A stretch of DNA of 43,422 nt, counting the filler, from Jimgerdemannia flammicorona (lineage: Eukaryota): the NCBI GenBank assembly GCA_003990765.1. It is 2 parts of 2 records of this genome, joined end to end, with 100 filler letters (N's around TTAATTAATTAA, not from the genome) between each part and the next. Parts side by side here need not be neighbours in the genome. Positions count along the whole stretch, not along the records: positions 1 to 21,667 come from RBNJ01001410.1; 1 more part is not named here. One strand, 5' to 3'. Position numbers and translations under genes: made by a program. The notes under the pieces were generated by a model that was not told the origin of the DNA, searched no databases, and was given only the letters and a program-made list of their open reading frames with translations. Positions within the stretch are counted from its first letter, which is position 1; every line of letters begins with the position of its first letter. Below are positions 1,046-26,921 of the stretch, in pieces.

Positions 1046-3617
1046 TGGGTTTTCCGACTCTCCCCCCCCATCCCACCTTTCTTCATGACGAAAAAACCAA
1101 AAACAACCAGTCACGATTATGTTGCGTTCCTCCAGATTCCGTATGGCCGTGTGGTTTGTGCCGATGGACCAATTGGTATGAACGTTTGTGCGGTTGGTTG
1201 GTGTTTTGAACGCCTTAACCCCCTCAAGCTATCTAGCACGTCGACATGAATATTTCTTCACGATCTTTTTTTATTTTATTTTTATTTTTTTTATTGTTAT
1301 TTGTTTTTTCCAGTGGACGCTTACGACTACCTCTTTGCCAGGATTTGAACATTTCAATCGCCTTACCCTGGTCTATCCCTGTCTCTACTTCTTATTTTTA
1401 TTATTTTATTTTGGAAAAAAAAAAGAAAAAACAATGTCATTCGAGGGTTCCAAAATTCGTACATATATTCTTCAAACCTGTCCAATTTGCGTGTTCTCAG
1501 AGCAGATTCGTTTCCTTCGGACAATCGCCAGTTAGTACATATGCTAATGTGCGAGTGTGTAGATGTAATAAATATGGTTGGTGGTCACATTAGTATGTGG
1601 CGGCTCATTTTTGTGCACACACTCGAAAGACAAGTTCCGCGGGTTGTTGTCTTGGTATGAAGTCTTCCAACCCAATACCGGATCGACGTAAAAGGCCTAT
1701 CGCGGTTTTGGTGCGTCATCATGCTGGGACCTGATCGGACAAGGTACCTCGTCGGGAGGTGGGGTGGTATTCTGGAAGCCTGTCAAATCTTATTCTGTAA
1801 GTTTCAAAAAAAAAAAAAAAAAAAAAAAACTTAGAACAAAGAAGGAAACGAAGAGCGTTTAGCATGTCAAATCATTCCGAGAGGGCGTTAAGAGTTGGTA
1901 CTGTAATTGTCAAAAGGAGGAAGCAAAGAAAAAAAGTATGTAACGCAATTGTCAAGCGCCAAAAAGTATGAATAAAGACGATAAAAGGCTAAAATAGTAC
2001 TAGCCCCACACTGCCAACCATAAGCCATTGACAGTTTCGTCTCACGCTCGGTGTACCAAAAAAAAAACACACAGGCCACCCAAATTGATGACAGGGGTTC
2101 TGCAGATGGATCGTCGGCTCGTGATTATCGTCAAGTTTGTCTAGCCACGAGCCCACGCGCAGGCAGCACGTCGGCGAATCGATAAAGCATAACTGGCATA
2201 AACCTGCAAAACCTGTTCGGATACGCCATACAAACGTCATAGGGCAGCGGGATCAGATCAGATGGCTTTCTCATGCGACGTTAACGATTGACGTCAACGT
2301 GGCCTTGATCATCTTGTGAAGATGTTGGGTCGGAGTCTACGACACGGGATGACGAAGAAGCAAACACTGGTCACGTCACTTGTGTTGTTCGCCAAAAATG
2401 ACGTCGGTAAAAACGGATTGCTTGTGGCTTTCCGAGTTGGGGGGTGACGATAAGGAGTAGCGTGAAAGGGGGTGAGAAAGGGGTTGTAGTTCGGAAAGGG
2501 TCGTTGGCGCGCCTTATTCTGACAAACGGACGTAAATGAGATTGAGACTGTTTTTAACAGAAACACATTGTTGATGCTGTTAGAGATTGCCGTAAGACCT
2601 TTCATTGATAACATTGTAAGTAATTATAATGATATCGTTTAAAGTGCAGACATGTGCTTTTTTTTTTTAAAAAAAAAAAGATGGGGCGTTTGACCATACC
2701 ACAGTAATGGGAGATATTTCACCTGTTTGTGTCGCTTGCTGCTTTTGCCTGCTTTTCTATCTGACTGGCTCTTCAATGTCGTGTTTCGACATCGTCGCAG
2801 CTCTTGTTTTAGCGTTTCTGTTTCTACGTCGACTTCTGCAGTTTCGCCATTGCAAATGAAGTTTACATTCTTGGCAGCCATTAAAAATGACATCAACGAG
2901 AAAGGTATAATTTACAGATACGTATATAGATGATCTAAGAATATATAGCAGCTCTATATTAAAAGTATATAAGTTCTGAGTTTGTATAATAGAGAGTCTA
3001 TATTTAATTTATAGGTACTACATATTTATACTTTAATAATAAACTCAATATCATCGAAATAAATATTATTAGAGGGAAAAGAAAAAGAAAAAGAAAAATA
3101 TATATTTAAGATAACTACTCTAAGATTTTAATTTAAGAGAATATTCTGATATTGAACAAAAGCTATATTTTATAATATTAAAGCTATCAATAATATTGAG
3201 CTGTCAAGGTTAATAATCCTCCTCCGATGCGCCGTTACAGATGGCCAGAATAAATAGATTCGTTTTTCTATTTTATTTTATTATTTTTTGTTCTAAAGTA
3301 TTTCGAAGTTATAGGTGTGGGAGCTCGTTCCGCAGGCAAATTTGCCTGCGAAAATATTCTAATAAAAATAAAAAATAAAAAGTCAGAAATTAAAATTTTG
3401 TATTAAGAAACAATATAAAAAATCTTTTTATATCCAAACGACCGTGTCATTTCTGAGAATCAGTTCCTGTCACACTTGAGTGACGTCATCATTCGGTGTG
3501 TGGAAATTCATGACATGGCACCAAAGATGGTGCATCAATTGAAATCCATATCATAGGAATAGAGAACGGCCACAATTTCCAGTATCCAAATCTAAAATTC
3601 TAACCCATCCCAATAAA

Positions 3618-5241
3618 CTACATCTCGAACCCATCCGTATCCAGGCCTTGCAAATTGCCTTCCAACGTCAATCCCCGCCTGCTGCTTATCGATAATGGTG
3701 TCCTTATCCTGCAACTTCTGCCGAAGCTCCGTCACCTGACGATAGTTCATCCCGGGCAGTCGTTCCAAGATTCCTACCTGATCGATCGGGTTCAACTGGC
3801 GCACGCGATCACGGAAGTCGCTCCTCTTCCTCAGTAAGCGCACCGAATAGATTGGCTGCCCTTGGGAGGAAGAGTCGCGTATGTCCGGCGCGTGGACGCC
3901 GCCCCATATACTGTGAAAGTCCGACGACGCCAGCGACTCCGAAGGATTGGGAGCGCTTGCCTTCCACTGATCGTCCCTGAGTTGCGGTTCGTGTAGATTC
4001 ATCATCCCGTCATTTAAATCGTCTCTGATTGAAGTTTCACTCACAATGGTTTTGCGCCACCTATAAAAGTTATCGATGTCAGGGAGCGGCAACATTGCAG
4101 GATTTGCGATGGGCTTTGAAAGATCGGATATGCGGACATAGATGTTCATCGGGAGGCTTGCAGGTTGCAACGCCACGGGCTCCGAGGCGGAAACGTTGAG
4201 TTGACTTGGCGCAGGACTAGTAGGGGTCGGTGAGACGATGGGTGTGGCGGTGCCGGGAAGAACCTGTGGAGTCAATATGACTGGCATGATCGGAGCTCGG
4301 CGGTCTCGGTGGCCCAATGTGTCGAGAATCTCCGTCAAATCGTCGCCCAGTCACTATGGGAAGGTGGAACTATCGAGGTTGGGAGGGTTATACATGTACT
4401 ATCCATTGGGTTAATTTTGGGAGATCGCTTCCTTCAGGAACACCCTGGTGTGTTTCACTTCGATGGCTCCCTCGTCAGCCTAGTGAAGACACCTGTCACC
4501 ACTACCACCCCTGGAAATAATAGAGAAAAGGCCAGAAATATACATTCCCCACACTTCAAAAAATACAATATCTCCATCCACAAAATCCGTCGCCACCGAC
4601 AACCAACAGACCCCAAGGGCGAGACCGCCGAGGAGACAGCCAGGGAGACCTTGCTTTCGCCAATACGGACGTTTCGCGAGAAACTCTGATAGTGTTTCCG
4701 CCGGAAAAGGATCCGCCGTGTACCATGCGTCCAATGTCGCTATATCCAGGCAGCACCTTTTAACGACGTTCTCAGAAGGTGCTCAAGTCTCGATATAATC
4801 TGACCGCTGGATAGGCTGGGTTTAATGTCGCAAGTTCCCCGGCAACCAAAAATACCGAGTACCTCGCGAGGAAACGCGAAATTTTCTTGATTCCAGGTTG
4901 CTTCCACTATGGGTCCTGAACTTCTGTATATACTGAGCGGCCAGGTCAGCAATTGATATATTTCCATTCGATTCTTTTATAATTATCTCGAGCCTCTCCA
5001 AGCACTCCGACGCCTCGTACGCCGGGTTTGAGGTGATTAGCTGGTTCTTGACAAGGAAGGCGTGCATGTGCGTTTCGAGGAAGGCATCCAGCGTTCGCTC
5101 CGGAGACTGCTTCCACACGCCATCTCCATGGTTCAGTGCATATATATCCGCGAGCTTCGCGACGGTCAGTGGGGTGGTAGCATTGGCGCGGAGGATCTTG
5201 ACAAGGTTTTCAATGCAGATAGCGGAGGTGGATGTGGTCAT
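3618..5241 (-). pseudogene. Disrupted paralog of the four-LOTUS-domain gene (frameshifts, indels and an internal inversion at 4296-4620)
   Basis: Fragments MTTSTSAICIENLVKILRAN (5241 down), AWYTADPFPAETLSEFLAKRP, AQCVENLRQIVAQ (on the + strand) and LRKRSDFRDRVRQLNPIDQVGILE all match the 8764-10437 protein, but in different frames and strands. Confidence 0.9.
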
Positions 5242-5394
5242 TTTTGTTAGAGTCGGAGGAGCTTTGTTGACAGAAATTCGTCTAATCTTTGGTCTTTATT
5301 TGATGACATCAGATATATTTGACATATACAAATGGCATATTCACAAATACAACAAGAGAAGTACGTCAACCCGGCTACTTGTGCTCTATGTTTG

Positions 5395-6010
5395 ACTGAA
5401 TCGTTTCCACTCAAAAATGGAATGTGTCTACACTCTCTATATTTAATATACTCGGCATACCGCACTCTCCACTTTGCCGACTCCTTCAATATAATCCTAT
5501 CCTCCTTCTCCTGCATCACTATCGTCGGCGTGTCGCGGCTCAAGCGGCTTGAACCCCGTGATGTCGACAAACTTTCAGATGGCGCACGATGCTGTGGCGG
5601 TGTTGTCCAAGGAGAAGCTGGGCCAGGTGCAAGGAATTCAGGGCCGAGCAGGTGTCGAAGGACGCATTGACAAAGATCACTCCCGCCAACCTCTCCTCAC
5701 CCGGAACGCGCGGAGATAATCACATATATCCTACCGTACGATCATCCGACAGGAACAACCCTATCTAACTCGAGGGCGTCCGTAATGGCTCGAATGTCCT
5801 CGGCCCACTGCTGCCCATTTTGGCATACCTATTAAACTGTATTGTTAGGACCGGGGCTTCGAGCTGCGGAAACCGCGAGTGCAGGCTCTGGGCAAAATCG
5901 TGGAGGAAAAAGGTTGATGGGTAGCCGTTCTGTGGACCGATGGTGAGAACGTGAAGCTTGGTACCGTCGGTGGAGGGGATAAAGTGACTTTCAGCATGGA
6001 TAGTCATCAC
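5395..6010 (-). pseudogene. Alpha/beta-hydrolase fold pseudogene, copy 1 (apparently intronless)
   Basis: Motifs in order: STDGTKLHVLTIGP..PSTFFLHDFAQS; DIRAITDALELDRVVPVG*SYG (nucleophile elbow GWSYG with Trp changed to stop); PTIVMQEKEDRII (acid residue); YRECRHIPF (catalytic His). They are split over several frames. Confidence 0.8.
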
Positions 6011-6939: not shown

Positions 6940-8540
6940 AGCCATTGCTCATACTGGTGAGCGGGTCTCCGGTGAGAATCGGTTTCCATTCAACACCAAG
7001 AGCATTTAAATTGGTTTCCCGACAGTGTAGTTATTATGTCAGTCAATTACAAAACCTTGGCCAAAATTGTGTTTCAGTTTTCCTTGCCATAGATCATCCG
7101 GTTCAACTGTAGGTCTGAAAACGTCGTCGTTGCCAGGTTGAATCATTCAGGTTATCTCCGAAGGTGCTGGCGGCGCTCTACAAAAAAGTCGTGAAAAGGC
7201 CGGCGAGGTTGGAACAGGAACGTGGTATAAATGAGAGAAGCACATGCAACGATGCGGATAGATTGCGCAAGATTCTCGAAATCAAATACAGCACGCTGCC
7301 TGTAGAACTCCAACAAGTCGACCAACAGAGTGCTAATGTCGGTAAACTCCTGAAATTGGTGCAGCGCTTCTTGGCACTGATCTATCATACGGACCAAAAA
7401 AAAAAGGGAAATAAACAATCAACGCCATTCATAATGATAACCACCAAGTAAAAGTACAACGTTATAATCTCCCCAACATAGACTAGACCTCCTCAACCAA
7501 CCCGACATACCTGCAAGAAATACATGCATAGCAACGTCGTTGCGTAAGAGGAAAGACATCCGGAGAACATCTCGTTGAGTTCAGCCAGGATCAATATCTG
7601 CCTAACCGTCATACGAGAGGCCGCAGGACCGGAGCAGCCTCCATATACTGTTTCGTTATTTGCGCGCTCTGGTTCCCGTCGTCCCTGTTGAAGCTGACGT
7701 CCATGCTATAGCCTGAAAACTGGTCCCTGTACTTGACGATGGGCACCTGCCGCCGATGATGATGGATTGAGTGGACAGTGAGATTCTGATGTTCGCGCAC
7801 CGTAAAACTCCCCTATGGAAACAATTTATCGAGATCACCATAGCAAGCACTCACCCTCGTATCAGATCCGTCAATCATCTTGCAAGCCGATAGTTCCTTG
7901 AGTAAGACAGGTGTGCCTCGGACTTGTCACCATCGTTGGTCATGACCACAACGTCCAAGTCGCTGTGTGTGATGACGCCCAAGCCGCGTGAGAAGAAGGG
8001 ATCCAATGAGACCGAGTTCGGCGCCTTCAAGAGAGCCGGGACAAACCAACGTGGTCGGCAGCGCTAGCCCGACATCGAGCAACCCAAACAGCGTGACGGT
8101 TGAGTTTTTTCACAGGCGCTTGGCGACGGCTCGCAACCGTTGAACGGCGTCCAGGCGGATTTGCACCTCTTTCGGAGTCGGGGACATGTATATACTCGCA
8201 GAAATCGACAATTTCGGCATTCAGCCTGCGAACGGTAACATGGCGGGGAAGACGGGAACGGCAAAGTTAATAATCCTCCTCCAAATCGCCGTTACTAGAT
8301 GGAAAAAATAATTAGATGCGTTTTGTTTTTTGTTTTTTGTTTTGTTTTTTTGGTTCTGCAGAATTTCGAGATTAAGGATGCGCAACGCAGGTTCACAGTT
8401 CACATACCAATCAATTGGTGTCCGTTTGTCGTAGAAGTTATCTTCCGTCCATGGCGGACGGTCATGATCTGATGATGGTGGGGCGATGGTTTGGAGGACC
8501 AGGGTGGCCAAGGCGAAGGTTTGTAGGTGGGTAAGTCTTT
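6940..8540 (-). pseudogene. Trf4/PAPD5-like non-canonical poly(A) polymerase (nucleotidyltransferase), spliced and disrupted
   Basis: Exons read PPWTEDN..IDW|LNAEIVDFCEY/MSPTPKEVQIRLDAVQRLRAVAKRL*KNSTVTLFG..LALPT|SDLDVVV, VPIVKYRD..MDVSFN..APVLRPLV/MTVRQIL..LNEMFSGCLSSYATTLL..FLQ|, and DISTLLVDLLEFY, which is the Trf4 motif order. GT-AG introns are present, plus at least two frameshifts and an in-frame TGA at a conserved Trp. Ends are approximate and no in-frame ATG was found. Confidence 0.8.
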
Positions 8541-8763
8541 TGTTGGGGTGGCGACAGTGTTGTGATAAGAGTAGAAAAGTAAGCTGACGTCATGTATGAG
8601 TGCGTGGAAATGTCAAACTTCATGCTCCAAAGATGGTGCATTTATTGAAAATTCATAATCATAGAAATGGAGAACGGCCACAATTTCCCACGCTCTCACA
8701 GCATCCAAGTCTAAATTCTAGCTATCCCAACAAAACAAAACAAAAAAAAAAAAAAAAAAAAAA

Positions 8764-10437
8764 CTACATCTCGAATCCATCCGCATCCAGGCCTTGCAAA
8801 TTGCCTTCCAACGTTAGAATCTCCTCCAATTCGTCAATCCTCGCCTGCTGCAAATCTATAATAGCGTCCTTATCCCGCAACTGTTGTCGAAGTTCCATCA
8901 CCCGCTCGCTGTGCTGGCGGCGGTTGGCCTCGAGCAGTCGCTCCAAGATTCCCACCTGATCGATCGGATCTAACTGGCGCACGCGATTACGGAAGTCGCT
9001 TCTCTTCCTCAGTAAGCGCGCCGAAGGCCTCCCATAGAGCGCTTCTGAATCGATTGGCTGTCCTTGAGAGGAAGAGTCGCGTGTGTCCGGTACGTGGACG
9101 CCTCCCCATATACCGGGAGAGTCCGACGACGCCAGCGACTCCGAGAGATTGGGAACGAAGGTGGAATCGCTTTCCTTCCACTGATCGTCCTTGAGTTGCG
9201 GTTCGTGTAGATCCATCGTCCCGTCATCTGATTCGTCTCCGGTTGCAGGATTTGCGATGGGCTTTGAAAGGTCCTTTATTCTGACATTGATGACCATCGG
9301 GGGGCTTGCAGGTTGCAACACCGCGGGCTCCGAGGCGGGAACGTCGAGTTGACTTGGCGCGGGACTGGCAGGGATCTGTGAGACGATGGGCGCGACGGTC
9401 ACCACGACTGGCATGATCGGGGGGGCCCTTGGGGTCTGTTGGTCGTCGGTGGCGATGGATTCTGTGGTTGGAGATAACTTTGTAGTTGAAATGTGGGGAG
9501 TGTGTATTTCTCGCCTTTTATTTTCCTTGTCTTCATTATTTTCGGGAATGGGCACTTCTAGAGTTTTCCCTGCTCCAGTGGTGGGGGTGGCGGTAGGGGT
9601 AACAGGTTTCTTCACCAGGCTGACGGAGGAGCGGTCGAGGCGAAACACATCGGGGTGTTCTTGAAGGAGAGAAGTAAGCTTTTTCCCAAAATCATCCCAA
9701 TGGAGAACCATAAAACTCTTCTTGTATAACCCTCCCAACTGTGTGAGTTCCACTTTTCCATCGCTCAACTGGGCGATGATTTGACGGAGATTCTCGACGC
9801 ATTGGGCCACCGAGACCGCCGGGGCGACCGCCAGGGAGACCTTGCTTTTGCCAATACGGAATATTAATGGACGTTTCGCGAGAAACTCTGATAGTGTTTC
9901 CGCCGGAAAAGACCATGGGCCGAAATCCGCCGTGTACCATGCGTTCAATATCGCTATATCCAGGGCAGCACCTTTTATCGATGCTCTCAGAAAGCGCTCA
10001 AGTCTCGATATACATCTGACCACTGGGTAGGCTGGGTTCAATGTCACAAGTTCTCCGGCAACCAAAAATACCGAGTATTTCGCGAGGAAACGTGAAATTT
10101 TCTTGATTCCACCGAACTTCTGTTTATACTGAGCGGCCAGGTCAGTAATTGATATATTTCCATTCGATTCTTTTATTATTATCTCGAGCCTCTTCACGCA
10201 TTCCGACGCCTCGTACGCCGAGTTTGAGGTGATTAGCTGTTTCTTGACAAGGAAGGCGTGTGGGTGCGTTTCGAGGAAGGCATTGAGCGTTCGCTCTGGA
10301 GACTGCTTCCACACGCCATCGCCATGGTTCAGAGCATATATCTCCTCGAGCTTCGCGACGGTCAGTGGGGTGGTAGCATTGGCGCGGAGGATCTTGACGA
10401 GGTTTTCAATGCAGATAGCGGAGGTGTAGGTGGTCAT
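8764..10437 (-). CDS. Intronless 557-aa protein: four tandem LOTUS/OST-HTH-like winged-helix domains, a P/T/S-rich disordered linker and a C-terminal coiled coil
   Basis: The ORF is intact. ATG at 10437 (acaaaaATG, same start as the paralog) is preferred over the upstream TTG. Four 60-70-aa repeats at about 10420-9610 share C-[IV]-x-x-L-x-x-[IF]...L-x3-Y-x3-[FH]...L-x-x-[FL]-L...F-x-[VIL]...V-[ST]-L. The tail MELRQQLRDKDAIIDLQQARIDELEEIL is heptad-like. Confidence 0.75.
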   Translation of the reverse strand: MTTYTSAICIENLVKILRANATTPLTVAKLEEIYALNHGDGVWKQSPERTLNAFLETHPHAFLVKKQLITSNSAYEASECVKRLEIIIKESNGNISITDLAAQYKQKFGGIKKISRFLAKYSVFLVAGELVTLNPAYPVVRCISRLERFLRASIKGAALDIAILNAWYTADFGPWSFPAETLSEFLAKRPLIFRIGKSKVSLAVAPAVSVAQCVENLRQIIAQLSDGKVELTQLGGLYKKSFMVLHWDDFGKKLTSLLQEHPDVFRLDRSSVSLVKKPVTPTATPTTGAGKTLEVPIPENNEDKENKRREIHTPHISTTKLSPTTESIATDDQQTPRAPPIMPVVVTVAPIVSQIPASPAPSQLDVPASEPAVLQPASPPMVINVRIKDLSKPIANPATGDESDDGTMDLHEPQLKDDQWKESDSTFVPNLSESLASSDSPGIWGGVHVPDTRDSSSQGQPIDSEALYGRPSARLLRKRSDFRNRVRQLDPIDQVGILERLLEANRRQHSERVMELRQQLRDKDAIIDLQQARIDELEEILTLEGNLQGLDADGFEM

Positions 10438-10649
10438 TTTTGTTATTAGTTCAGAGAGGCGTTCCGGCTTTGTTGACTGCAAATTCGTCTTACCACGTGC
10501 CCTCTTTATGTAACCCTTTATGCAAAGCTCCTTTTGGTGTTAGTCTTTATTTAATGAATTTGATGTCAGATATATTGGCGTGTTTTAATAGTACCAAAAA
10601 CAAGTATGTCAACCCGATTATTTGTGTTGTATTTACCAAATCTAAATCA

Positions 10650-11036
10650 GTTAAACATCGCCTTCGGAATTATCCAGACCCTTATATTTAATATGCTTGC
10701 CAAACCGCAACCAATTTGTTGACAATCTTATCCTGGCACGACGCGTGTCGGGCGTCAAGGTGAAGGCGTCCTATAATCTCATACCACACACACGGCTCAG
10801 GCGGCTTGAACATCAGAAACCGGGACCAACTGCAAGGAATTCAGGACTGAGCAGGTATGTCGTCCCGGCAATGCCGACGTCGAAGGACACATCGACAAAG
10901 ATCACTATCACCAACTCCTCTCCTCACAAAATGCGCGGAGAAAATCGTATAAATATCCCACCCGACAAGAACAACCCTATCCAACTCCAGGGTGTCCACA
11001 ATGGCTTGAATGTCCTCAATGTAAAAAGAATGCTGC
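10650..11036 (-). pseudogene. Alpha/beta-hydrolase pseudogene, copy 2; 5' part lost at the transposon boundary
   Basis: IEDIQAIVDTLELDRVVLVG matches copy 1. Homology stops at about 11036, where CpG-free transposase DNA begins. Confidence 0.75.
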
Positions 11037-11039
11037 AGT

Positions 11040-12407
11040 GAAAAACCAAGATGGTCATTGATGTAAACATGACTACTGTGATGAAGAATTTTCTTTTGAA
11101 TTTTGCTGAAGTCCATAGGTTGCCTAGTCCAGTCAGAAATATTAATCAAGTCACCCAATCAATTATCTTTTTATCTGCAGAAATGAGCTACAAATTCATT
11201 CATTGTGATTTTTTTAGCTGGCCTAGAAGAAAATAGTACTCTGCATGCACTTAAATATGATATATTCTGTAAATTGTGGCATCAGCTAATTCTATATATC
11301 CAAATCATAAGTCCTTGAACTGATTTATGCAATACCTGTCAACATTTGTAAAATGATTTACAATTCAAAGCTTATAAAGAAGAAAAGGCTCAAGACTTAT
11401 TAAAGAGGTATAAAGAGCATCTTGCTAAAGCCAAATTATAATGAAACTATTATAACAGAAATACCAAATTGGCAGAAGAATAAAGAAAACTCATTGACCA
11501 GAATTATTTTATACTGAAAGACAAGATATCATTCTGCAGTATTAATACAGTTACCTATTATAGTTATAACTGAGCCCAAAATGTCCATGTGTCTCATTCT
11601 GATCAACAGATTGGCAAAGTATATTACCTTAGTACTTATAAAGTACATTTGTTTGGAATCCAAAATAAAGTAGTCTATAAGCAAATTAATTATATTCTTG
11701 ATGAGAATGAACTTCTTAGAAAGAGTCTGAATAGTATGCTTAGCCTAGTCTTTAATAGAATTAAATAATTGAATCAAGGTAAAGAGTACTTAAAAATCAC
11801 TTGTAATAATATAAGTAGACAAAACAAGAATAATACCACTCTTTGGTTTTATTTATATTTGGTAATTTGCAGATATTATAAAAGCATGGAATTGAACTTT
11901 ATGATTCTGGGCCATATCAAATTTAAATATAATAGTAGTTTTGGTCTGATTAAAAGGCTTTATTACAAAATTACAGTAAACTGTATAAATCACATTATCA
12001 ATATGGTAAAAAGGTCTAGCATTACTGGATTAAATAAAGCATGATATTATAATAGCAAAGATAATTTCCAATATTTTAACATTGTAAGTAGTTTCAAAAT
12101 ATACTTCAAGAAGCTGTCTGATATATAAAAGTTTCAATATTTTCTTTTTATCAAAGTGAATCCAGATACTATCAAAGTATAAGAAATCACCAATAGTCTA
12201 TTCTAAGAATTCAAACTATTAAAAAGTAGTAAATCTGAGGCTTCAAAAATCATAGAAATAATTAAGATCTTGTCATTTCTAGTACTAGTACCTCCTCCTA
12301 TAGAATTGAAATACCAAAAATATCTTTATTACAATATTCATCTCTTTGTTCAGAATGAATTCAAAGATATTACTTATCTAAAACCAATTTATACTATCAA
12401 TAAATAA
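11040..12407 (+). mobile_element. Degenerate DDD transposase, Sola-type (DUF7869-like)
   Basis: Motifs TDLCNTC, YYSYN*AQNVHV..QQIGKVYYLSTYKVHLFGI, INYILDE, ITCNNISRQNKN (DNCxGQNKN) and FMILGHIKFKYNSSFGLIK (GHTKFxxDxxFG), with many transition-type stops. No TIRs were identified. Confidence 0.7.
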
Positions 12408-14270: not shown

Positions 14271-15301
14271 AAATTTATATTTATTTTTCTTTTATATACT
14301 TATATACTTCTTTTTTATAAGGTTATATTAAATATATAGATTATTTTAGTCAAAACAAAAAACAATGGTTATTTTTCTTTAAGGTGGTTCTGAATGAAAG
14401 AAATATATCAGATTTTTATATTTTACTGATGATAATTCAGTTATAGTATGAAAATGAAGAAATATTTCCTAAAAAAATTATGTTCTACCTAATTACAATA
14501 TATCAAAGTCTTATTAGTATCAGTGAAGACTTTAAAAGAAGTATAAAAATAGAAAACATTAGGTTATACTTTTGGTTTACTTATTCTAATCAAATTATAC
14601 AGTGAATATTGAATAATTAAAAAGTTATGAGCAAAGTAATGATAAAAATAAATAATCAAATAATATCAAATGTTCACTTTATCTAGTTTTATTGCAGTAT
14701 GTCCTATATGTATATAGAGTTATAAATCCCAATACTCTTACTCATTAAGATATTCTGAATAACTCAAAAAATTGATAAAAAAAGAATATAAATAAACTAA
14801 AGAAATATAATATCCTATATTAGAGGTTTTTTGCAACTTGAAAATCTTATATAGTACTTTGAATAAAACTATGCTCAGAAAAGAGAAATTATATTGAGAA
14901 GTTACTAAGTATTAATAAGTATATAATTTAAATTTATCTCTCAGCTAGAGGTTTTTCATTATATCTAGTTAAATAATATTATTTTTTAGTTATAGATTAT
15001 TAATTATTAAGATTATGAGTTTAGTTATATATATATTATATAAGTTAAAAGTATTATTATTATTATATATAAATATTATTTTAAATATTATTTCAGACTT
15101 TTTTTGACTTAATAGATATTATAAATATATATATAAAATAAATTATATGCTTTATTTATAAAGAGATATTTTAATTATTATAGTGTATTCTAAAACTAAA
15201 CTAATATTTTATTAAATTTTATATTTTAATTATTTAAATAAAAATACTCTATATAAATATATTTTATATTATAATATATTATAGTTTTATATTAAAGATA
15301 T

Positions 15302-16197
15302 TGTAATAGTTGATCTAAATTAGGAATATAAATCAGAGGAATTAAACATTTGATCATAATATCTAAACTTAATTTCTGATATAGTATAGTTTTACAAATA
15401 GCAGTCATTATTATTTCACAACTGTTAAAGTTTTCATAAATATTAAACTCTTTACAGATATTGAAGATTTTGTAAATATTAAAAGATTCAATACTTGTGA
15501 AAAGTGACTCATCAAAAATATAGTCATAACTTAGCCACCTATCTCATAGCTAGCAAACTTATATAAATAACCTAGTATCTTAGAGTGAATAAACCTTAGA
15601 TCAAAATAGTTCAAAGCAAAGAGAAAGTAAAAGAACTAGTAAGCCTGTGGGCAGATATACTTCCAACTTACCCACTCCTATATCCTAAAGACTCTATAAA
15701 GTCAAAGAAGATCAAGTTTTCAAGATACAGAAATTTGACATACTTCCAAGATTAAGCATCTGCTATATTACAACTTGATATCCATTGACTGGTGATTCAA
15801 GATGAATCCCTTACTTTCAAACTGAATAATGAACAACTATCACTACTCAAACAATTATATAAATCAAACCAAGATATCCAGACAAGATAGATATAAGACT
15901 ACTAATATTCTATAATTATACTTCAGATGAGTTAATCATTATCTTCATTGATAATTTTAAGCAATATACTACTATAAGGAACCTGAGAGCAAGACAGTAA
16001 GTAACTCTTATACTCTTTAGTCTCCAAGAACTAGCAAGAGCAGTATTCATAGCTATAATCTATATAGAAAATAATGATGATACTATACTAGCAGTACAGA
16101 AGACCTGGCTCTAAGCTATATATTATATAGATAAGATCAAGCAGATACTGAAGGATTAGCTCAACACAATATATCAAGGAATGAGTAAGGATCTAAT
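15302..16197 (+). mobile_element. Truncated Gypsy element A: 5' LTR (15302-15772), PBS-like site and start of gag (ATG 15802); same family as element B
   Basis: TGTAAT...ATTACA termini and a TATAAATA box; collinear with 26922-27800; gag begins MNPLTFKLNNEQL. Confidence 0.85.
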
Positions 16198-16329
16198 CAG
16201 CTATAAGCACCTCTCTCTAGTAATATTCAGATTATACAACCTTTTAGCAATACTTTTGATACAGTTTCTGGAAAAAAAGCTACTAGTATTATAGCAACTA
16301 ATGAGCATTCTGAGGTATATACTGGGTAG

Positions 16330-19300
16330 GGTGGCCCAGGTGTATTTGACTAGCAGTATGTAAAGAGGGACTCTGGCTTAGGGGATAGTATGAGAGGCCT
16401 GCTAGCAGGAGGACATAGTAGAAGAGGGGGCAGTACTAGAGGTCAGGGGACAGAGAGGGTGAGCTTTGTGAATAAGATGAAGGAGAATCAGCAGAGAGCT
16501 GGGCTGGAGGGCTGGCTTAGGAGGGGTAAGGAGATAGTGAAGACTGCAGAGCAGTGGCCTCAAGGGAGAGTCTCTCTGGGGGGTCAGAGTAGTGGGGCTG
16601 GTAGTGTAGGGGCTAAAGGGATAACTATTGATGAGAGTGTGACAGATGATCAGGAAAAAAATCTAGATGGGACTACTGATGATAGACCAAGTAGTGGGAA
16701 AGACATGAGGTCTAGTGATCTGGTAGATGGTGTAATAGAACTGGTAGTGACACCATTACTCAAGAAGTTGATCTCAGAGTTCACAGTCACTTTGTGCTTT
16801 CAGGGCTTAGCAGTGATGGCAAAAATAGTCCTGGGGCTAATTACTAAGCAGGTGGCTGAAGTAGTATCTATGAAGTTCCTGAAGGAACTGGAAGAAGTAG
16901 AGATTGGCTTTAAGGAGGCTGGACCATTAGAGGAGGTACTGAAGGTAGGGTTGACAGTTAGAGAGGTATATGTTCTGATGGTGCACTGCTTGAAGTGGGA
17001 CCCCAGGGTGGTGTAATTGCTAGTAAAGAGGGTGCCTATAGTGATCATTGAGGAGATAAGGAGGAGAGTTGAGGAAGTCATAGCTGAGTATAGCAAGATG
17101 GTTGATATTGGGTTCTGGGTCTAGGAGGGGACCTTGTTCAGAACTGGGGATGTTGATGTTCAAATCTAGTTAGCAGAGAAAAAAGCTACCAGGAAGGCTA
17201 GAGACTAGCCTTCAATAATGGTCTGAGAGACTTTCTTGTACAAAGTGATGCAGGTGAAGGGGAGTGAGGAGGAGAAAGAGGATCTGCTGGAGGTACTGGA
17301 AGAGCTAAGTAGTGCTGTAGAGCAGAGAGCTAAGACTTAGAAGGTATATGTCAAGTCAATGTATTTGAAAGTGGTAGATGAAAAAAGGATTCAGATAGAT
17401 AAGAGGTAGTGGGAAAGACCCCAAAGATATAAGAGATAGAGAGAGCTATTGACAAAACTAGAAAGCAGGGTGATGAAGGATGCTGGTGGTATTGAAATTA
17501 TGGAGGAAGCCAAGAAGAACATCTGGACCAGTGAGAATAGAGAGAATGCAGAGAAGGGACCAGAAGGGAGAGAGGAGGTGAAGGGAAATGACTCTTATAT
17601 GAATAGTACCTTTGAGGTCTAGGAGCTATCCCTGATCTCTATGCTACTTATTAGATGAGGTCCAACTTCAAGAGACAGAATGGCAGAGAATGTGCCCATG
17701 TAAGGAGTCCAGAGAGTACATTTTGGAGTTCCTGAGGTAGCAATGGGGGGGCAGATGTTGGCAGTGGGTGAGGATGAACTAGTGGATATTCAGGAGGAGG
17801 AGTGAGATGAGGCTATAAGTATAGGGGCAGATATCTTGATGCTGGATAGAGGGTGGCCAGTGACTCCTGGGGGGAAGGAGGTGGGAAATCTGCTATGGAT
17901 GTACAAGATGATGAATAACTTTGCAGCAGAGAAGTTGGGAGAGGTGGACCTGTGAGTGATGAGTGATGAGTATTGGGCACATATCCTGTATAGTGAGGGA
18001 GTGATGGAGATACTGAAGGTAGAGATTCTTACTGTTTTCCTGAAGAAGGAAGGATATGAGGTTGATAAGAAGAGGGAGGCTAGGCTGGTGGTTACTACTG
18101 GTGAGAGAACTGCTTTCTGTTGGGCAAAGTAGCATAGGTTGAAGCTCTGGCAGAAGGCCTGTCTAGAATATCATGAAGAATTCAAGGAGAAGGAGGATGG
18201 AGAGCTTACAGAACTTCTGGCTGGATTGGAGACTAAGAGGACTGAAGAGGAGGAGAAAGCTATAGAATACAATCTAGATCTGGCTCAGGATGAGATAAAT
18301 ATAGAGTAGTAGAGGATATGCTTACTATTATATATTATTTCTTATAAACAGTACAACTAACATTTTCTCTTTAAATGTGAATGGACTCTGGGGTTTGTTT
18401 CATTGACAGAATATTTTTGCTTGACTGAAGGGATTGGAGGCCAATCTCCTTCTTCTGCAGGATATCAGGAATAAGGATGATTTAGACAAACTGGAATAGA
18501 CAAAGGAATGGGGAGAGAAGGTAGTTTGGAAGAACAAGGTTGAGATTCTGGTCAGGAAGGGCAGAGGGGAGATATGGTATATGTGGAACTGGGGAGACAA
18601 ACTGGTCTGGAGTAAGTGGATTCACACTAGTCAAGAACTAGTTATGGTTGGATTCTGCTACTGCCCTGTAGTATAGAGTGAGTATGTAGATTGAGTGAAG
18701 GGTCTCCAGAAGGAAGGGACTCTGGCAGGGGCTGGAGTGGACATACTTGGAGGGGACTTTAATATGGTCAGAGATGTACTGTTGGATAGAATTGATAGAG
18801 AGTGGGGGGTGGAGGGAAAGAGTAGAGGTTTGGAGGCATGGGAGGAAGTAGAGAGGCTGAGTGCTTTGGTAGATACTGGCAGGGAGTTGTGGGGGGACAG
18901 AAGGGTGTATATACATTGAGCAAGTAGCCTGGGGACAAAGATTGACTAAATCTTGACAGTGGACTGCTGGGGTCTGGATGTTTGGGGGTCTCTGGAGGCA
19001 GAATAGTATCTGTGGTCTAATCATTAGAGACTGCTGGGACAGGGCTATTTTGGGGGGAGTGGGGATGAACTAGGACATTAGTGCCTTAATTCCTCTCTGG
19101 TAGACAATAAGGTACTGTGGGACAAGTGGGCTAAGGATATTCAGCAGAGGGTAGAGGGGTGGATATAGAAAGGTATCTCAGTTGGTATTAGGTAGATGAG
19201 GCTGAAGGAGGCTGTTAGGGTTTATTGGAAGGAGGCAGGTGCAGTGGCTGGGAGACAGAGGAGGAAGAAGAGGTTGTGGGCCTCTACTAGATTGATAAGA

Positions 19301-21270
19301 CTGTTGAAAGATTGGACAGATTTTGGTGGCCCTAGAGAGGGTAGAGGATTGGAGATTGCTATGGGTGAAAAAGGAGGTTGTGGAGTTGCAACAGATATTA
19401 CAGGAGGAGGAGGAAGCACAGGTGTAGAGTATGATAGTATATCTATGTTGGTAGAGGCTGGAAGAAGGAGAGAGACCCTCTAAGTTTCTCATGAGGACCC
19501 TTTGGGCAAGGAGGATTCAGCAGAGGTAAGAGGGGGTTCTCGATTCTGAGGAGACATTGGTATATAGTATATAAGACATTCTCAAGTTACTTAAGGAGCA
19601 GTAGAGTAGCTTGTGGAGTGAGGTGAAGAGTGGGGCAGAAGATGCTGCCATTGGTCTTACCTTGGAGGATTGGTACCTACCACAGGCAGAAGGGCTGAGC
19701 AACCTAATAATACTGGTGCAGAAGGAGGAGATTTACCAGGTTCTTACTACAACTATACTGGGTACAGCACCAGGTGAGGATGGCCTGCCCTGGGCTTTCT
19801 GGAAGAAGATGGTAGATATCTCCAGTATGCTGGGAGAGCTGAGGGTACTCTGTGACTTGGTACTATAGTCCAGGAGATGGGTAGGGGAGCAGGATCTGGG
19901 GCTGGTGGTACTGCTGTATAAGAATAAGAGTAGGAGAGGACTGGAAGAACTGGAGGCCAATCATACTACTGGACATGGACAGAAAGTTGATTACTAAGAT
20001 GGTAGTAGTGAGACTGCAGAAGGTGGCCCAGCAGGTCTTAGGGGTAGAGCAGTGGGGATTTATCAGAGGTTGACTCATTCAGGATGGTATGGCTTGGGTG
20101 TATGGTGTTATTGAAGAGGTACAGGCCTGTAGATTGGATGGGTGCCTGGTCTTCTTGGATCAGAAGAAGGCATATGACCATGTTTGGAGGGTCTGATTAG
20201 CAAAGATACTAAATAGGATTGGAGTCCCTCAATAGTTCTGAGTGATAATAGTCAGCCTACTGGAAGGGAGCAGGGCTGTACTTATGTGTAATGAGCATTG
20301 AGGGGTGACTTTTTCTTTAATAAGAGTGTTCTCTAGGTGGACCCACTGTCTCTCATTTGTATATACTCTTCTTGAAGCCCTTAATGGATAGAATTCAGTG
20401 GAAGATAGGAGAGCTTTCAGTTTATGGCATTGAGTGAAAAGTTGGTGCTTTTGTGGATGATATAGTGGTTGGCCTAAGTTTGATTATCAATATTAAGGAG
20501 CTCAAGGAGACTATGAAGTAGTATGAGATGCACTCTGGGGCTAAACTCAATTAGCATAAGTATGAAACAATGGTGCTGAGTATGGCCTGATGGGAGAGGA
20601 TGTCATTGGAACAATTGTCTCTGCTGGAGAGATAGTGAGGTACTTGGGTATCTATCTGTCAGTATACAGGTCTATTCTTTCAAAACTCTGGTGAGAGCAG
20701 CAGGTGGTTATCTGGGGGGAGGCTCTGCAGAGCTGGAGAGACTGCCACTTATCTCTGATAGGGTATGTTTCTATCTTGAATACTTACTGGCTGCTGAAGT
20801 TGTGGTATCTGGCATATCATCTGGACTTCCTGGTCTGGGTGGTAAAGAGACTACTGAAACTGGCCAAGGGGTGGATCTGGGCAGAGAGAAGGAGTCAGAT
20901 TAGCTGGGAAATTTTGTCTTTACCAGTGACTAGAGGGGGGCTCAGGCTGGTTGACTTTCTAAAGAGGTTATACTACCTGAGAGCATGGTGGCTGAAGAGA
21001 GCTGTTGAGCTGAGGGGTGGCAGCTGGGTTCCTCTATTGAAGAAGGTCTGGGAGATGAGGTCCTCACTGAGAGGATCTACAGGAGATCTTCTATCCTTAG
21101 TTAGACTTCAGAACAATGAGTGTATGCAGTTTAAGGGTTTCTGGTAGAGATTTACTAATGGGGTATACTACATTGATATTCATTAGTAGGGAGATGAGAG
21201 AGAAAGGCCTTAGGGCCCAGTGATGTAGAGATGAGACTAAGTGTTGCTAAGAGGTATCCCTCTTAGAGGG
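16330..21270 (+). mobile_element. Degenerate L1/Tx1-like non-LTR retrotransposon: ORF1 (about 16330-18310) and ORF2 with AP endonuclease and RT (about 18330-21270)
   Basis: Endonuclease motifs SLNVNGL, LLLLQD and LGGDFNMV..LDR. RT motifs APGEDGLPWAFWK, NWRPIILLDMDRKLITK, FLDQKKAYDHV, FVDD (about 20449) and YLGIYL. Downstream LPVTRGGLRLVD. Many stops. Confidence 0.9.
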
Positions 21271-21279
21271 TGAGGCTGG

Positions 21280-21667
21280 CTGGGAAGGAGAATATGGAGA
21301 AGTTGAGGGACTGGCCAGCAACACTGAGGTGGAGACCAGTGGAGTATAAGGTCTCTAGGGTGAAGGGGACTCAGAAGGAGGAGGAGGATCTGTTGGAGGT
21401 GCTGGAGGACCTGGAAGGGGCAGTTGTGAGGAGGAGATTAGCCTGGAAGAAGTTTGAGGCCAGGACAGTGGTGGGGGAGGTGGATGAGAAGAGGGTTCAG
21501 ATAGAGAAGGGGGCCTGGGAGAAGATGCAGGGGAAGAGGATCCAGAAGGAGCTGCTGGCAAAGTTGGGTGAGGATAGGGCTGGTGGAAGCTCAGGGAAGG
21601 GGGCTGCAGGGTTGCAGGAGAGCACCTGGGCTGAGGGAGGAGAGATGGCCCAGAGCGGGGCTCGGAT
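21280..21667 (+). mobile_element. ORF1 fragment of a second, related LINE
   Basis: YKVSRVKGTQKEEEDLLEVLEDL..VDEKRVQIEK..ELLAKL aligns with YKVMQVKGSEEEKEDLLEVLEEL..VDEKRIQIDK..ELLTKL at about 17240-17465. Confidence 0.75.
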
Positions 21668-21767
21668 NNNNNNNNNNNNNNNNNNNNNNNNNNNNNNNNN
21701 NNNNNNNNNNNTTAATTAATTAANNNNNNNNNNNNNNNNNNNNNNNNNNNNNNNNNNNNNNNNNNNN
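21668..21767. other. Assembly gap with an artificial six-frame-stop linker (N44-TTAATTAATTAA-N44)
   Basis: Read directly from the sequence; the block is exactly 100 nt. Confidence 0.95.
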
Positions 21768-22995
21768 ATTAGGAAATTTCGTGATGGGGTTAGGAGTAGG
21801 ACCTAACAGGGAGCGGATTTACTTAAGAGTGGTTTGTGGGTTATTAAATAGGTTTATTTGCTATTCATGATATTGCTATACTAGGAGTATTTGTATGAAG
21901 GGGTATTGTGGGGAAGTGCTCAGAAGTTGTATTCAAATTGTTCAAGTCTTTCAAGTCTGAGATTCTGAGGTCTGGGGGAGGGGGTATTTATACTAGTGAG
22001 GGGCTATCTGGACTATGCTGAATATGGATGTAGCACTAAGTGCCTTGCTGAGTCGGAATGCAGTCACGTAGTATAAGTGTGATCTGACATGTCAAGGGAT
22101 CGTCTGACTACTGAGTCAGTTCACAGTCATATCATACAAGGCTAATCTAACTATACTATGACTGCTAAGCTATTTATAGATTTAGGCACTGTCTGGTTAG
22201 TCCTTGATGACATCACTATTGATGACATCATCACTGGCAAAGTCTGAGCAGTTTTCTGACTTCTGATCTTATCAGTTTCAAGGTGTTATCACTTCTATCT
22301 CTTGCAAGATTAAGGCTGTCCTTGGTGGCGGTGGTTGTACAAGGATAACAGGTCTTGGTTGTCTTTTTTTTTTGGTCTGCTGGCGCATTTGCGAGGACTG
22401 GCCATTCTCATCTAGGGCGAGGGCTCCCAATGTCGCGGCTGGGGGTTTGAACCTCTTGGAAATGATATTTTCTGTAATCCAAGGCAATTTCTAGTAGTAA
22501 TATCTGTCACGTGGATGGCTTGAGATTGGTTTCGATGTTGTCGGCTTTCTTGAGTTCAGATGAAGTATCCGTCACTCTCTAACGGAGGTGACACAGATAA
22601 AGCGAACAGAGTTGTTCAAATGCATTTTGCTTCTGCTAAGTAATGAGGTCTTGTATAGTTACGGTATATCTTGGTCTTGAGTTGATAAGTGCAGTTCGTG
22701 AACCTTTTGATGGGTGAGATAGGGTTCTTTTTGTCTTGATTTGAGTTTGGTACTTTCGGTTTCTTTTGTAATAGTACAGTACACCAAACTAGCTATAGCA
22801 GTTCAGAGTCAATCTTATGGTTGTAGTACTTCTTCTAGTATTCTTGTATCTTGGCGGTGGGTTCTTGTGCTTGCTGGCATATTTGTGTAACCAGATGATC
22901 TCTTCGGTAACTTATTTTATAGTCTCGCATGTGGTTTCCAAATTAGTTCTGAGGATACCATGTGATTTTAGTGGCTTAGAGGTTGTGTGCTTACA
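21768..22995 (-). mobile_element. LTR copy 1 of a 1.5-kb LTR family (left end lost in the gap)
   Basis: Near-identical to 23712-24929; ends CTTACA; TATAAATACCCC on the minus strand near 21990. Confidence 0.85.
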
Positions 22996-23016
22996 GTAAT
23001 CAACCTTTCTTCTATC

Positions 23017-25996
23017 TATAAGAGGATTACTTATTAGGGTAACTGTTACATAGTTCTGGAAGGGTTTTCTGAAAGTTCTGGATATTCTGAAAAACTATTT
23101 TCTTAAGGTCAAGATCAATTTCATATAGAGTATATCCTCTATACTTATTGATTTCAAGATTAAATTAATGTCTCAACCAAAGTCCTTTTTTGGACTAGTT
23201 CTAGATGTTTAGGTTTTTTCATATTTCAGAAAGTTTAAGAAACTAAGACTAGTTTAGTTGAATCAGTGTATCACTGCAGATAATATTCAATTAGGAAATT
23301 TTGTGATAAGGTTAGAAATAGGACCTAACAGAGAGTAAATTTACTTAAGAGTAGTTTGTAGGTTATTAAATAAGTTTATTCTCTATTCATGATATTGCTA
23401 TACTAAGAGTAGTTGTATAAAGAGATATTGTGGGAAAGTGTAAGAGGGTTACTTTTTAGGGTAACCATTACGTAGTTCTGGAAGGGTTTTCTAGAAGTTC
23501 TGAATATTCTGGAAGACTGTTTTCTTATGGTCAAGATCAATTTCATATAGAGTACGTCCTCTACGCTTATTGATTTCAAGATTGGGTTGACGTCTCAACC
23601 AAAGTCCTTTCTTGGACTAGTTCTGGATATTCAGGATTTTCCATATTTCAGAAAGTTCAAGAAACTAAGACCAGCTTAGTTGAATTGGCGTATCGCTGCA
23701 GACAATACCCAATTAGGAAATTTCGTGATGGGGTTAGGAGTAGGACCTAACAGAGAGCAGATTTACTTAAAAGTGGTTTGTGGGTTATGGAATAGGTTTA
23801 TTTGCTATTCATGATATTGCTATGCTAGGAGTATTTGTGTAAAGAGATATTGTGGGGAAGTACTCAGGAGTTGTGTTCAAATTGTTCAAGTCTGAAATTC
23901 TGAGGTCTGGGGGAGGGGGTATTTATACTAGTGAGGGGCTATCTGGACTATGCTGAATATAGATGTAGCACTAAGTGCCTTGCTGAGTCGGAATGCAGTC
24001 ATGTAGTACAAGTATGATCTGACATATCAAGAGATTGTCTGACTGCTGAGTCAGTTCACAGTCATGTCGTACAATGCTAATCTAACTATACTGTGACTGC
24101 TAGGCTATTTATAGATTTAGGCACTGTCTGGTTAGTCCTTGATGACATCACTATTGATGACATCATTGCTGACAAAGTCTGAGCAGTTTTCTGACTTCTG
24201 ACCTCATCAGTTTCAAGGTGTTGTCACTTCTATCTCTTGCAAGATTAAGGCTGTCCTTGGTAGCAGTAGTTGTATAAGGATAACAGGTCTTGGTTCTCTT
24301 TTTTTTTGGTCTGCTGGCGCATTTGCGAGGACTGGCCATTCTCGTCTAGGGCGAGGGCTCCCAATATCGCGGCTGGGGGTTCGAACCTCTCGGAAATGAT
24401 ATTTTCTGTAATCCGAGGCAATTTCTAGTAGTAATATCTGTCACGTGGATGGCTTGAGATTGGTTTCGACATTGTCGGCTTTCTTGAGTTTAGATGAAGC
24501 ATCTGTCACTCTCCAACGGAGGTGACACAGATAAAGTGAACAGAGTTGTTCAAATGCGTTTTGCTTCTGCTAAATAATAAGGTCTTATATAGTTACAGTA
24601 TATTTTGGTCTTGAGTTGATAAGTGCAGTTCATGAACCTTTTGATGGGTGAGATAGGGTTCTTCTTGTCTTGATTTGAGTTTGGTACTTTCGGTTTCTTT
24701 TGTAATAGTACAGTACACCAAACTAGCTATAGCGGTTCAGAGTCAGTCTTATGGTTGTAGTACTTCTTCTAGTATTCTTGTATCTTGGTGGTGGGTTCTT
24801 GTGCTTGCTGGTGTATTTGTGTAACCAGATAATCTCTTCGGTAACTTGTTTTGTAGTCTCGCATATAGTTTCCAAATTAGTTCTGAGGATACTATGCGAT
24901 TTTAGTGGCTTGGAGGTTGTATACTTACAGAAAGTGTTCTGTATGTTTGAGTTAGAGATTCTGAGATCTGAAGAAGAGGGTATTTATACTAGTGAGAGAC
25001 TATCTGGACTATACTGAATATGGATATACATAGCACTTAGTATCTTGCTGAGTCAGAATATAGTTACATAGTACAAGTATAATCTGACATGTCAAGAGAT
25101 CATCTGACTACTGAGTTAGTTTACAGTCATATCATATAAGGCTAATCTAACTATACTATAACTGCTAAGCTATTTATAGATTTAGATACTGTCTGGATAG
25201 TTTTTGATAATATTATTATTGATGATATCATCTCTAGTAAAGTCTGAGCAGTTTTCTGACTTCTGATATCATTAGTTTCAAAAGTATCATCACCTCTATT
25301 CCTTGCAAAATTAAGACTATCCTTGGTGATAGTGGTTGTATAAGGATAATAGGTCTTGGTTCTCTTTTTTTTTTGACTGCTGATATATTTATAAGAACTG
25401 ATCATCCTTGTCTAAGATAAGGGCTCTCAATGTCATAGCTAGGGGTTCAAACCTCTCAGAAATGATATTTTCTATAATTTAAGGCAATTTTTAATAGTAA
25501 TATCTATCATGTGGATGGGCTTGAGATTGGTTTCAACAATGTCAGCTTTCTTAAATTTAGATGAAGCATCTGTTATTCTCCAATAGAGGTGATACAGATA
25601 GAGTGAACAAAGTTGTTCAAATGCATTTTGCTTCTACTAAGTAGTAAGGTCTTATATAGTTGTAGTATTTCTTAGTCTTAAGTTGATAAGTATAGTTCAT
25701 AAACCTTTAGTAAATAAGAGAGGTTCTTCTTATCTCAGTTTGAGTTTGATACTTCAGTTTCCTTTTATAATAGTATGGTATATCAAAACTAGTTGTAGAG
25801 GTATAGAGTCAGTCTTATAGTTATAGTACTTCTTCTGATATTCTTATATTTTGATAGTAGATTCTCATACTTGCTGATGTATTTTGTATAACCAGATAAT
25901 CTCTTCAGTAACTTATTTTATAGTCTCACATATAGTTTTCAAATTAGTTCTGAGGATGATATGCAATTTTGGTGGCTTGGAGATTGTGTGCTTACA
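23017..25996 (-). mobile_element. Solo LTR copy 2 (older), interrupted by copy 3; TSD CTATC
   Basis: T(A)TAAG start at 23017 and CTTACA end at 25996; CTATC at 23012-23016 and 25997-26001; the two halves are 23017-23438 and 24930-25996. Confidence 0.9.
23439..24929 (-). mobile_element. Solo LTR copy 3 (1491 bp) nested in copy 2; TSD GAAAG
   Basis: TGTAAG...CTTACA inverted termini; GAAAG at 23434-23438 and 24930-24934. Confidence 0.92.
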
Positions 25997-26921
25997 CTAT
26001 CTGTGATGGCCATCTCCTCTTCTATCTAAAAAGCAGTTACCTATACCAGAACTATACTTATCAGGAAGCTTGTTAAAGCTCAGAGAGTCTCACTACAGAT
26101 ACTAAAGACCTGTAGATAACTTATACTAGTACTTGATGCCCAAGGTTGGCCAACTCTATATATAGTCTATAATACTTCAGATAATATCTCATTAATAACA
26201 GCAAAAGGAAGAAAGCACTATATCAAAATAAGTATATCTCAGATATAGCTGAAGGTATCAGAAATTACAAAAAAGTAAAGAAAACACTGATTAGATACTG
26301 ATAAAGAGGCAACTCATCACCATTACCTCTCTCCCACTATTCTGCAATAGGTACAGTAAACCAACCCAAAGTAGAGAAGATATTAGCTATAGAAAGTAGA
26401 CTCAAAAGATTGTCTACCAAACCTTATGACTAGTAAGATAGTGGGGAAAGAGATAGTTAAATAGATCAATATCAGTATACTGAATAAGATAGATAGATCT
26501 ATTATATATTTTATATAATCAGTAGAGTATATTGCATTTAAAATATTATAATTTAGTTAATTATTTATAAAATATAATAAAAAAGAGGTTAAATTATTTA
26601 AATATCTAAGTTGTCTGTAATGATAATAATGATAATAATAATAATAATAATTAAAATATTGCTTACTACCTTATAATTATTAATAACTAAATAATAAATA
26701 ATAGTAACTATTTAATATAAATTATTAATTATATTAAAATATAATATAATATATAATATAGAAAGAAAAAATAGATATTTGATTACTAGATATTTAGTCT
26801 AATATCTAATTTAGAGATTACAAAATTATATCTTTTATATTATCTAAAAGTTATAATTCTAATAATATCTAAAATTAGTTATTTCTGAATAGATAAAATA
26901 CTATAATAGATTATTATATAG

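Follow-up and report, generated by a model that had tools for sequence, protein, structure and literature searches.

We describe a gene on the minus strand of a 43,422-nucleotide stretch of DNA (filler included; hereafter the window) from the fungus Jimgerdemannia flammicorona (assembly GCA_003990765.1). Its product, here called P0001, combines four winged-helix repeats, an acidic linker and a long C-terminal helix, with no enzyme domain recognised by Pfam. Our analysis favours a real, lineage-restricted protein-coding gene. As the most likely role of its product we propose that of a multivalent adaptor for RNA, a proposal that we hold at about even confidence. The window consists of two records joined by filler, positions 1-21,667 being RBNJ01001410.1, and parts that adjoin in it may not be neighbours in the genome.

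The gene and its winged-helix repeats

The coding sequence and the segments of its product are arranged as follows.

8764..10437, minus strand: complete single-exon coding sequence of P0001, 557 amino acids plus stop, translated without an internal stop
10219..10437, minus strand: repeat 1, amino acids 1-73, an Egl-type, LOTUS-like minimal winged helix, aligned in register
10033..10218, minus strand: repeat 2, amino acids 74-135, the shortest repeat, aligned in register (shuffle z 3.9-10.4)
9823..10032, minus strand: repeat 3, amino acids 136-205, from alignment and shuffles; isoelectric point (pI) 10.0 and 42% identity to the aligned repeat of the homolog P0002
9601..9822, minus strand: repeat 4, amino acids 206-279, from alignment and shuffles, with the best OST-HTH stretch (213-271)
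9028..9600, minus strand: acidic low-complexity linker, amino acids 280-470, probably disordered, judging by composition, pI and a low-confidence model
9223..9312, minus strand: conserved linker island, amino acids 376-405, a possible short docking motif with 32% identity to P0002
8767..9027, minus strand: conserved C-terminal module, amino acids 471-557, a basic patch followed by a long helix, 45% identical to P0002
8779-8967, minus strand: helix of amino acids 491-553, a probable coiled coil by model confidence (predicted local distance difference test, pLDDT, 62-77) and heptad character

The stop-to-stop frame comprises 591 codons, a length that by arithmetic from the base composition would arise at random with a probability of about 3e-12. 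The frame is bounded upstream by a stop at 10540-10542, the first ATG stands in an A-rich context, and both the start and the end of the protein match those of its only homolog, P0002. The original prediction, made from the sequence alone, had proposed a gene at 8764-10437, and these coordinates prove to be exactly those of the ATG-to-stop coding sequence. It had also described a stand-alone protein of four domains, a linker and a coiled coil that lacks a catalytic domain, and the layout of four domains, linker and C-terminal helix is right. In the whole-protein Pfam scan, apart from the two winged-helix families considered below, the four remaining rows fell under their cut-offs and no catalytic family was among the matches.

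The four repeats, of 62-74 amino acids each, are mutually homologous and align in register. Six residues (C9, L13, L30, Y34, L55 and F62) are invariant across all four, a repeat of the degraded copy of the gene and the homolog. Every one of the six possible repeat pairs scored above its shuffled controls (z 3.9-11.5); for five pairs the score was reached by none of 1000 shuffles, and for repeats 1 and 2 by 4 of 1000. The four-fold repeat that had been proposed is therefore real rather than a chance pattern. In the Pfam scan, WH_Egal (PF23713) matched three stretches, the best at 11-73, with E 3.2e-13 and 50.4 bits against a cut-off of 27, and OST-HTH/LOTUS (PF12872) matched two, the best at 213-271, with E 1.3e-7 and 31.9 bits against a cut-off of 23.8. 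By these thresholds the repeats are members of the Egl/LOTUS winged-helix superfamily, and we regard the domain call as solid. The earlier assignment to LOTUS/OST-HTH was thus right in kind, both cut-offs being passed, and is to be adjusted in that the stronger match is to the LOTUS-like WH_Egal family.

Searches of solved structures lead to the same protein. A profile of the repeats, built from a six-row alignment (A2) that contained solely this family's own sequences, was compared with all PDB sequences and had a single significant target, Drosophila Egalitarian (E 4e-8, 14 entries), the matched stretches falling in its domains ED1, ED2 and ED3; the next matches came at E 0.58 and worse. Chains of Oskar, TDRD proteins or MARF1 were not among the matches listed in the profile or single-sequence PDB searches, and phmmer with the whole of P0001 against PDB sequences gave a chance match only (E 1.3). 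For residues 1-280 the best Protein Atlas score was 0.85, which we treat as no more than a lead; one Egl-domain cluster and one OST-HTH cluster were among the entries listed. These results bear directly on the notion that P0001 binds DNA or chromatin rather than RNA, for example as a transcription or chromatin factor that works as a dimer. We consider this unlikely, given that the sequence evidence points toward Egl and LOTUS alone, that no DNA-binding winged-helix family appeared in the Pfam scan, and that Egalitarian is the only target of the PDB profile search below E 0.5.

The predicted fold is in keeping with the domain call. Modelled from alignment A2, so that any resemblance to Egalitarian did not come from the input, repeat 1 reached a pLDDT of 79.2 and a predicted template modelling (pTM) score of 0.61, and its elements run in the order helix 6-19, a bridge residue, helix 27-37, a short helix 42-45, helix 47-57 and a hairpin of 62-65 and 68-71. 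In this model repeat 1 folds as a winged helix-turn-helix that superposes on the solved Egl domains. The ten best PDB matches in Foldseek were all Egl-BicD entries, with template modelling scores of 0.57-0.71 and E values from 6.7e-3, none reaching 1e-3. Three structure searches of repeat 1 concur in placing the Egalitarian domains first, at 10-22% identity, with unrelated winged helices interleaved among the Egl matches, including SAMD1 (8.5), ZMYND11 (8.3) and APC2 (8.1) and also MCM, Fox and histone H1 structures. The winged-helix fold that the original prediction had presumed is accordingly the one that repeat 1 adopts in the model.

Within the superfamily, we class the repeats as minimal domains. 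Repeats 1-3 each end in a beta hairpin, with the first helix of the next repeat following within a few residues, and downstream of repeat 4 the low-confidence full-length model places a Pro/Thr-rich segment without a helix. There is consequently no room for an extension helix after any repeat, and the C-terminal helical extension that defines the extended, Vasa-binding LOTUS domains (eLOTUS) is absent. According to Jeske et al. (PMC5458760), a LOTUS domain needs its C-terminal helix to bind Vasa; the same authors state that this helix appears to be missing from fungal LOTUS domains and that fungi are without a Vasa ortholog. The earlier suggestion of a protein that nucleates a granule-like RNA-silencing complex and binds DEAD-box helicases found no support in our analysis, and the lack of the Vasa-binding helix makes RNA binding by avidity likelier than helicase recruitment.

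The linker, the C-terminal helix and a model for RNA binding

The linker that joins the repeats to the C-terminal module extends over about 190 amino acids (280-470), of which 61% are P, S, T, A, Q, D or E, as expected from the earlier description of a low-complexity segment, and has a pI of 4.5. No secondary structure is seen within it in the low-confidence full-length model. Its conserved island is also retained in the degraded paralog.

The full-length AlphaFold model, made from the single sequence, is poor (pLDDT 41) and usable for the C-terminal helix alone, helix 491-553 being its sole part at pLDDT 62-77. In the best heptad register the a and d positions are occupied by L, I, V or M at a fraction of 0.56, and the value in P0002 is the same. 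We therefore regard the helix as a probable coiled coil: for the coiled coil originally proposed, a long helix is predicted and has heptad character, which suggests such a structure rather than proving it.

We envisage that two or more chains associate through the C-terminal helix, so that a single particle would display at least eight winged helices, each with weak affinity for RNA. By analogy with Egalitarian and with minimal LOTUS domains, these could grip structured or G-rich RNA cooperatively, and the linker with its conserved island might recruit a partner. The precedents are drawn from two reports. The Egalitarian domains are described as LOTUS-like winged helices that bind double-stranded RNA cooperatively, Egl being active as a dimer; in stem-loops, neighbouring minor grooves each receive the second helix of ED1 or ED2 (PMC13186709). 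Minimal LOTUS domains, which are present in fungi, are reported to bind G-rich and G-quadruplex (G4) RNA (PMC7498356). Within P0001 itself the only sign of RNA binding, an indirect one, is the neutral to basic character of the repeats, whose pI values range from 7.9 to 10.0.

Conservation, the degraded copy and the surrounding sequence

P0002 was the single match at E <=1e-3 in an exhaustive HMMER search of 1,835,955,588 cluster representatives (E 2.8e-22). It has 428 amino acids and comes from a public run assembly (Logan), where its cluster has one member found on two contigs. Its layout comprises two full Egl-type repeats instead of the four of P0001, then an acidic linker that shares the island, and a C-terminus in which the basic patch and the helix recur; WH_Egal is recognised in it at E 2.5e-10 and 41.2 bits. 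Like P0001 it starts a few residues ahead of its first repeat and ends just past the C-terminal helix, and basic repeats together with an acidic linker are found in both proteins. Overall identity is about 30%, and it is unevenly distributed: 39-42% in the aligned repeats (1 and 3), 45% in the C-terminal module, the best-conserved part, 16% in linker residues 280-375 and 32% in the island. Word-index searches with the whole of P0001, with residues 1-280 and with P0002 (the 'longer' and 'shorter' length classes left out) found nothing beyond P0002, and no relatives were found in metagenome contigs, searched with alignment A1 and P0002, or in viral contigs, searched with A1. The family is very narrow and lineage-restricted.

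Variation between related sequences offers a second view of constraint. We compared four sequencing runs (X1-X4), all as contigs; among the runs listed there was none of RNA. Public runs of a related organism carry pieces of the gene at 90-100% identity and in more than one variant. In run X1, five of the six substitutions listed inside the coding sequence, which fall in the C-terminal module (8767..9027), are synonymous, the other changing Ala to Val. All three indels listed inside the coding sequence in X1 and X4 are 3 nucleotides long, as against four of seven that are not multiples of three in the neighbouring 7612-8484. The synonymous bias and the 3-nucleotide indels suggest constraint on P0001, and an absence of purifying selection, which would have told against the gene, is contradicted by this limited evidence from the listed variants together with the conservation pattern of P0002.

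At window positions 9856-10105, run X1 yields two different 250-nucleotide contigs, with 0 and 16 differences and depths of 10 and 16; the gene is therefore present in the related organism as two or more diverged copies or alleles. Runs X2 and X3, from soil metagenomes, contain a few identical pieces of 151-183 nucleotides at small shares, from which we draw no conclusion on habitat.

Two further loci lie on the same strand at lower window coordinates.

3205..5801, minus strand: degraded paralog (pseudogene) that takes in the gene together with its flanks and has an inverted middle piece, 68-86% identical to 8262-11017 by blastn
7150..8220, minus strand: multi-exon gene resembling non-canonical poly(A)/terminal nucleotidyl transferases, with frame breaks, from Pfam and Protein Atlas

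The paralog, 5 kb from the gene, contains numerous indels, its frames are broken, and the codons that align include one in-frame stop; the inverted match pairs 9425-9821 with 4620-4298. Between P0001 and this copy the ratio of nonsynonymous to synonymous substitution rates (dN/dS) is 0.66 overall, with 0.5 for the folded parts and a value of about 1 for the linker, as expected where one partner is a pseudogene. Substitutions between the two copies are symmetrical and show no direction. No further copies exist elsewhere in the window, and neither of the two lies inside transposon remnants.

The transferase-like neighbour is situated about 540 bp downstream of P0001. Its exon at 7612-7812 matches an MTPAP-like central palm at E 1.7e-4, below the Pfam cut-off, and the locus has an Atlas score of 0.95 for a poly(A)-polymerase-like family. 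An intron of the form GTGAGT...TAG is found at 7814-7855, and we recognise further motifs there by eye. Short introns of the GT-AG type, together with the LTR-retroelement remains in the window, show that the DNA is of eukaryotic origin. The frame is broken at 7612, where X1 and X4 have one extra base, and probably again near 7906, so that the locus is either a pseudogene or affected by assembly errors.

These surroundings raise the question of whether P0001 is simply a reading frame without a cellular function, be it young, in decay or associated with transposons, which is still open by chance of its age and was copied along with its flanks in a segmental duplication within repeat-rich DNA. 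Several observations would fit: the single match among the cluster representatives and none in the word-index searches or in metagenome or viral contigs, the degraded paralog and the broken neighbour, the several variants in X1, and the overall dN/dS of 0.66. Against this, the roughly 30%-identical P0002 retains the architecture and both termini, and it is mainly the folded parts that are conserved. Among the listed variants, most differences are synonymous and the indels keep the reading frame, and the window holds just two copies, neither within transposon remnants. We judge a functionless frame to be quite improbable.

The same neighbourhood has been taken into account in weighing whether P0001 could be a scaffold that recruits proteins in a granule or silencing pathway, in line with the original prediction. 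Here the winged helices would bind a helicase of the DEAD-box type or a deadenylase complex instead of RNA, and the disordered linker would drive condensation. Proteins that combine LOTUS domains with disordered regions, MIP-1/2, are reported to organise germ granules in C. elegans (PMC8331183), and the tandem LOTUS array of MARF1 is reported to bind CCR4-NOT (PMC6168497); the linker of P0001 contains a conserved island, and next to the gene are a locus resembling poly(A) polymerases and transposon remains that extend over 32 kb. However, the repeats are without the C-terminal extension needed for Vasa, of which fungi are reported to have no ortholog (PMC5458760), and the poly(A)-polymerase-like neighbour is frame-broken, adjacency alone being weak evidence. 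A recruiting scaffold thus seems to us an unlikely role. A more specific possibility, which we regard as speculative and very improbable, is that a dimer with eight Egl/LOTUS winged helices captures structured or G-rich transposon RNA for a non-canonical nucleotidyl transferase of the type encoded next door, and so acts as a scaffold in the surveillance of transposon or aberrant RNA. If true, this would be a Vasa-free functional analogue of the animal germ-granule LOTUS scaffolds in a non-animal lineage.

A multivalent RNA-binding adaptor remains the role that we favour, and there are findings that weigh against it. ED3, the best sequence match of the repeat profile, is reported to be dispensable for RNA binding (PMC13186709). 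Repeat 1 alone was modelled confidently, as compared with a pLDDT of 41 for the full-length protein, and the heptad occupancy of 0.56 is modest. The gene sits in a decaying neighbourhood, next to a pseudogene copy of itself and a broken gene; dN/dS against the degraded paralog is just 0.5 even in the folded parts; and the evidence for selection comprises six listed substitutions, in a table with 55 and 7 further entries beyond those listed.

The original description, in which no intact gene follows P0001 in 32 kb of dead transposable elements, is a fair one. Between 11 and 43 kb the GC content is 19-47%, no listed frame exceeds 220 amino acids, and the sequence contains internal repeats as well as remnants of DUF7869, dUTPase and reverse transcriptase. 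A DUF7869 fragment (11769-12041, plus strand, E 8.1e-9) lies in a block of 19-24% GC directly upstream of the gene. Two retroelement copies (28594-31786 and 35831-39051), AT-rich and filled with stops, have diverged to 65% identity; both contain a dUTPase (29465-29842 and 36786-37382), and the second also has a reverse-transcriptase match (37481-37807). Repeat-induced point mutation was considered as the cause of the AT-rich blocks and rejected, the ratio (CpA+TpG)/(ApC+GpT) being 1.07-1.31 and the differences between the two copies of the P0001 gene being without direction.

A direct repeat of 1.1 kb with 75% identity (15109-16199 and 26712-27799, 11.6 kb apart in the window) could represent the ends of a large old element enclosing a skewed block. 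This block, 16000-22000, has 32% G and 12% C, a GC skew of up to 0.52 and 45% GC, and its frames have no Pfam match; one of them, 20695-21147, which we take by eye to resemble the tail of a LINE-type (long interspersed nuclear element) reverse-transcriptase reading frame, is likewise without Pfam support. Runs of N occupy 21668-21711 and 21724-21767, and three to four units of about 1.0-1.2 kb follow head to tail at 21768-25999 with 81-93% identity. At the left end, positions 1-1045 form a tandem repeat that is open in several frames, for example as the acidic unit SEVVNLESELEVV repeated about 7 times, and this may be part of a repeat-rich gene running off the window. Rfam and tRNA scans of the window found nothing.

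Comparison with known systems

LOTUS-type domains occur outside animals, fungi included, where their role is reported to be unknown (PMC7498356, PMC5458760). In agreement with the original prediction, which knew of no characterised fungal example, the matches listed in a literature search on 'LOTUS domain' and 'fungal' contain none by title or abstract. Comparison must hence be made with animal proteins, and the layout of P0001, with four minimal domains, an acidic linker and a probable coiled coil of its own, appears from its sequence to differ from those of Egalitarian, MARF1 and the Vasa-recruiting scaffolds.

The tandem minimal LOTUS domains of MARF1 (Limkain b1) are of the same type as the repeats of P0001, which however has no NYN or RRM domain above the Pfam cut-off. 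In MIP-1/MIP-2 (EGGD-1/2), Oskar, Tejas and Tapas, an extended LOTUS domain is reported to bind and activate Vasa-type helicases (PMC5458760), in contrast to the minimal type present here; none of these proteins was among the sequence matches listed in the repeat-profile PDB search.

Egalitarian (ED1-ED3; PDB 9RVY-9RWB) is the best match to the repeats in both sequence and structure. The two proteins share the principle of several LOTUS-like winged helices in tandem on flexible segments, and Egl is described as a dimer that acts cooperatively on RNA (PMC13186709). Nevertheless, Egalitarian has three such domains and P0001 four, and the exonuclease-homology/XAD module of Egalitarian is missing from P0001, in which Pfam recognised no exonuclease family at E values up to 10; for want of this module P0001 is not an Egalitarian orthologue. 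Neither were BicD- or LC8-binding parts recognised in the Pfam scan, and dimerisation of P0001, if it takes place, would proceed through its own C-terminal helix, as opposed to the partner-mediated dimerisation of Egalitarian. The present value of the protein is limited by the tiny size of its family. Even so, P0001 offers a compact, enzyme-free test case for what minimal Egl/LOTUS winged helices bind without Vasa, and it could show whether avidity provided by a coiled coil can replace the partner-mediated dimerisation of Egalitarian.

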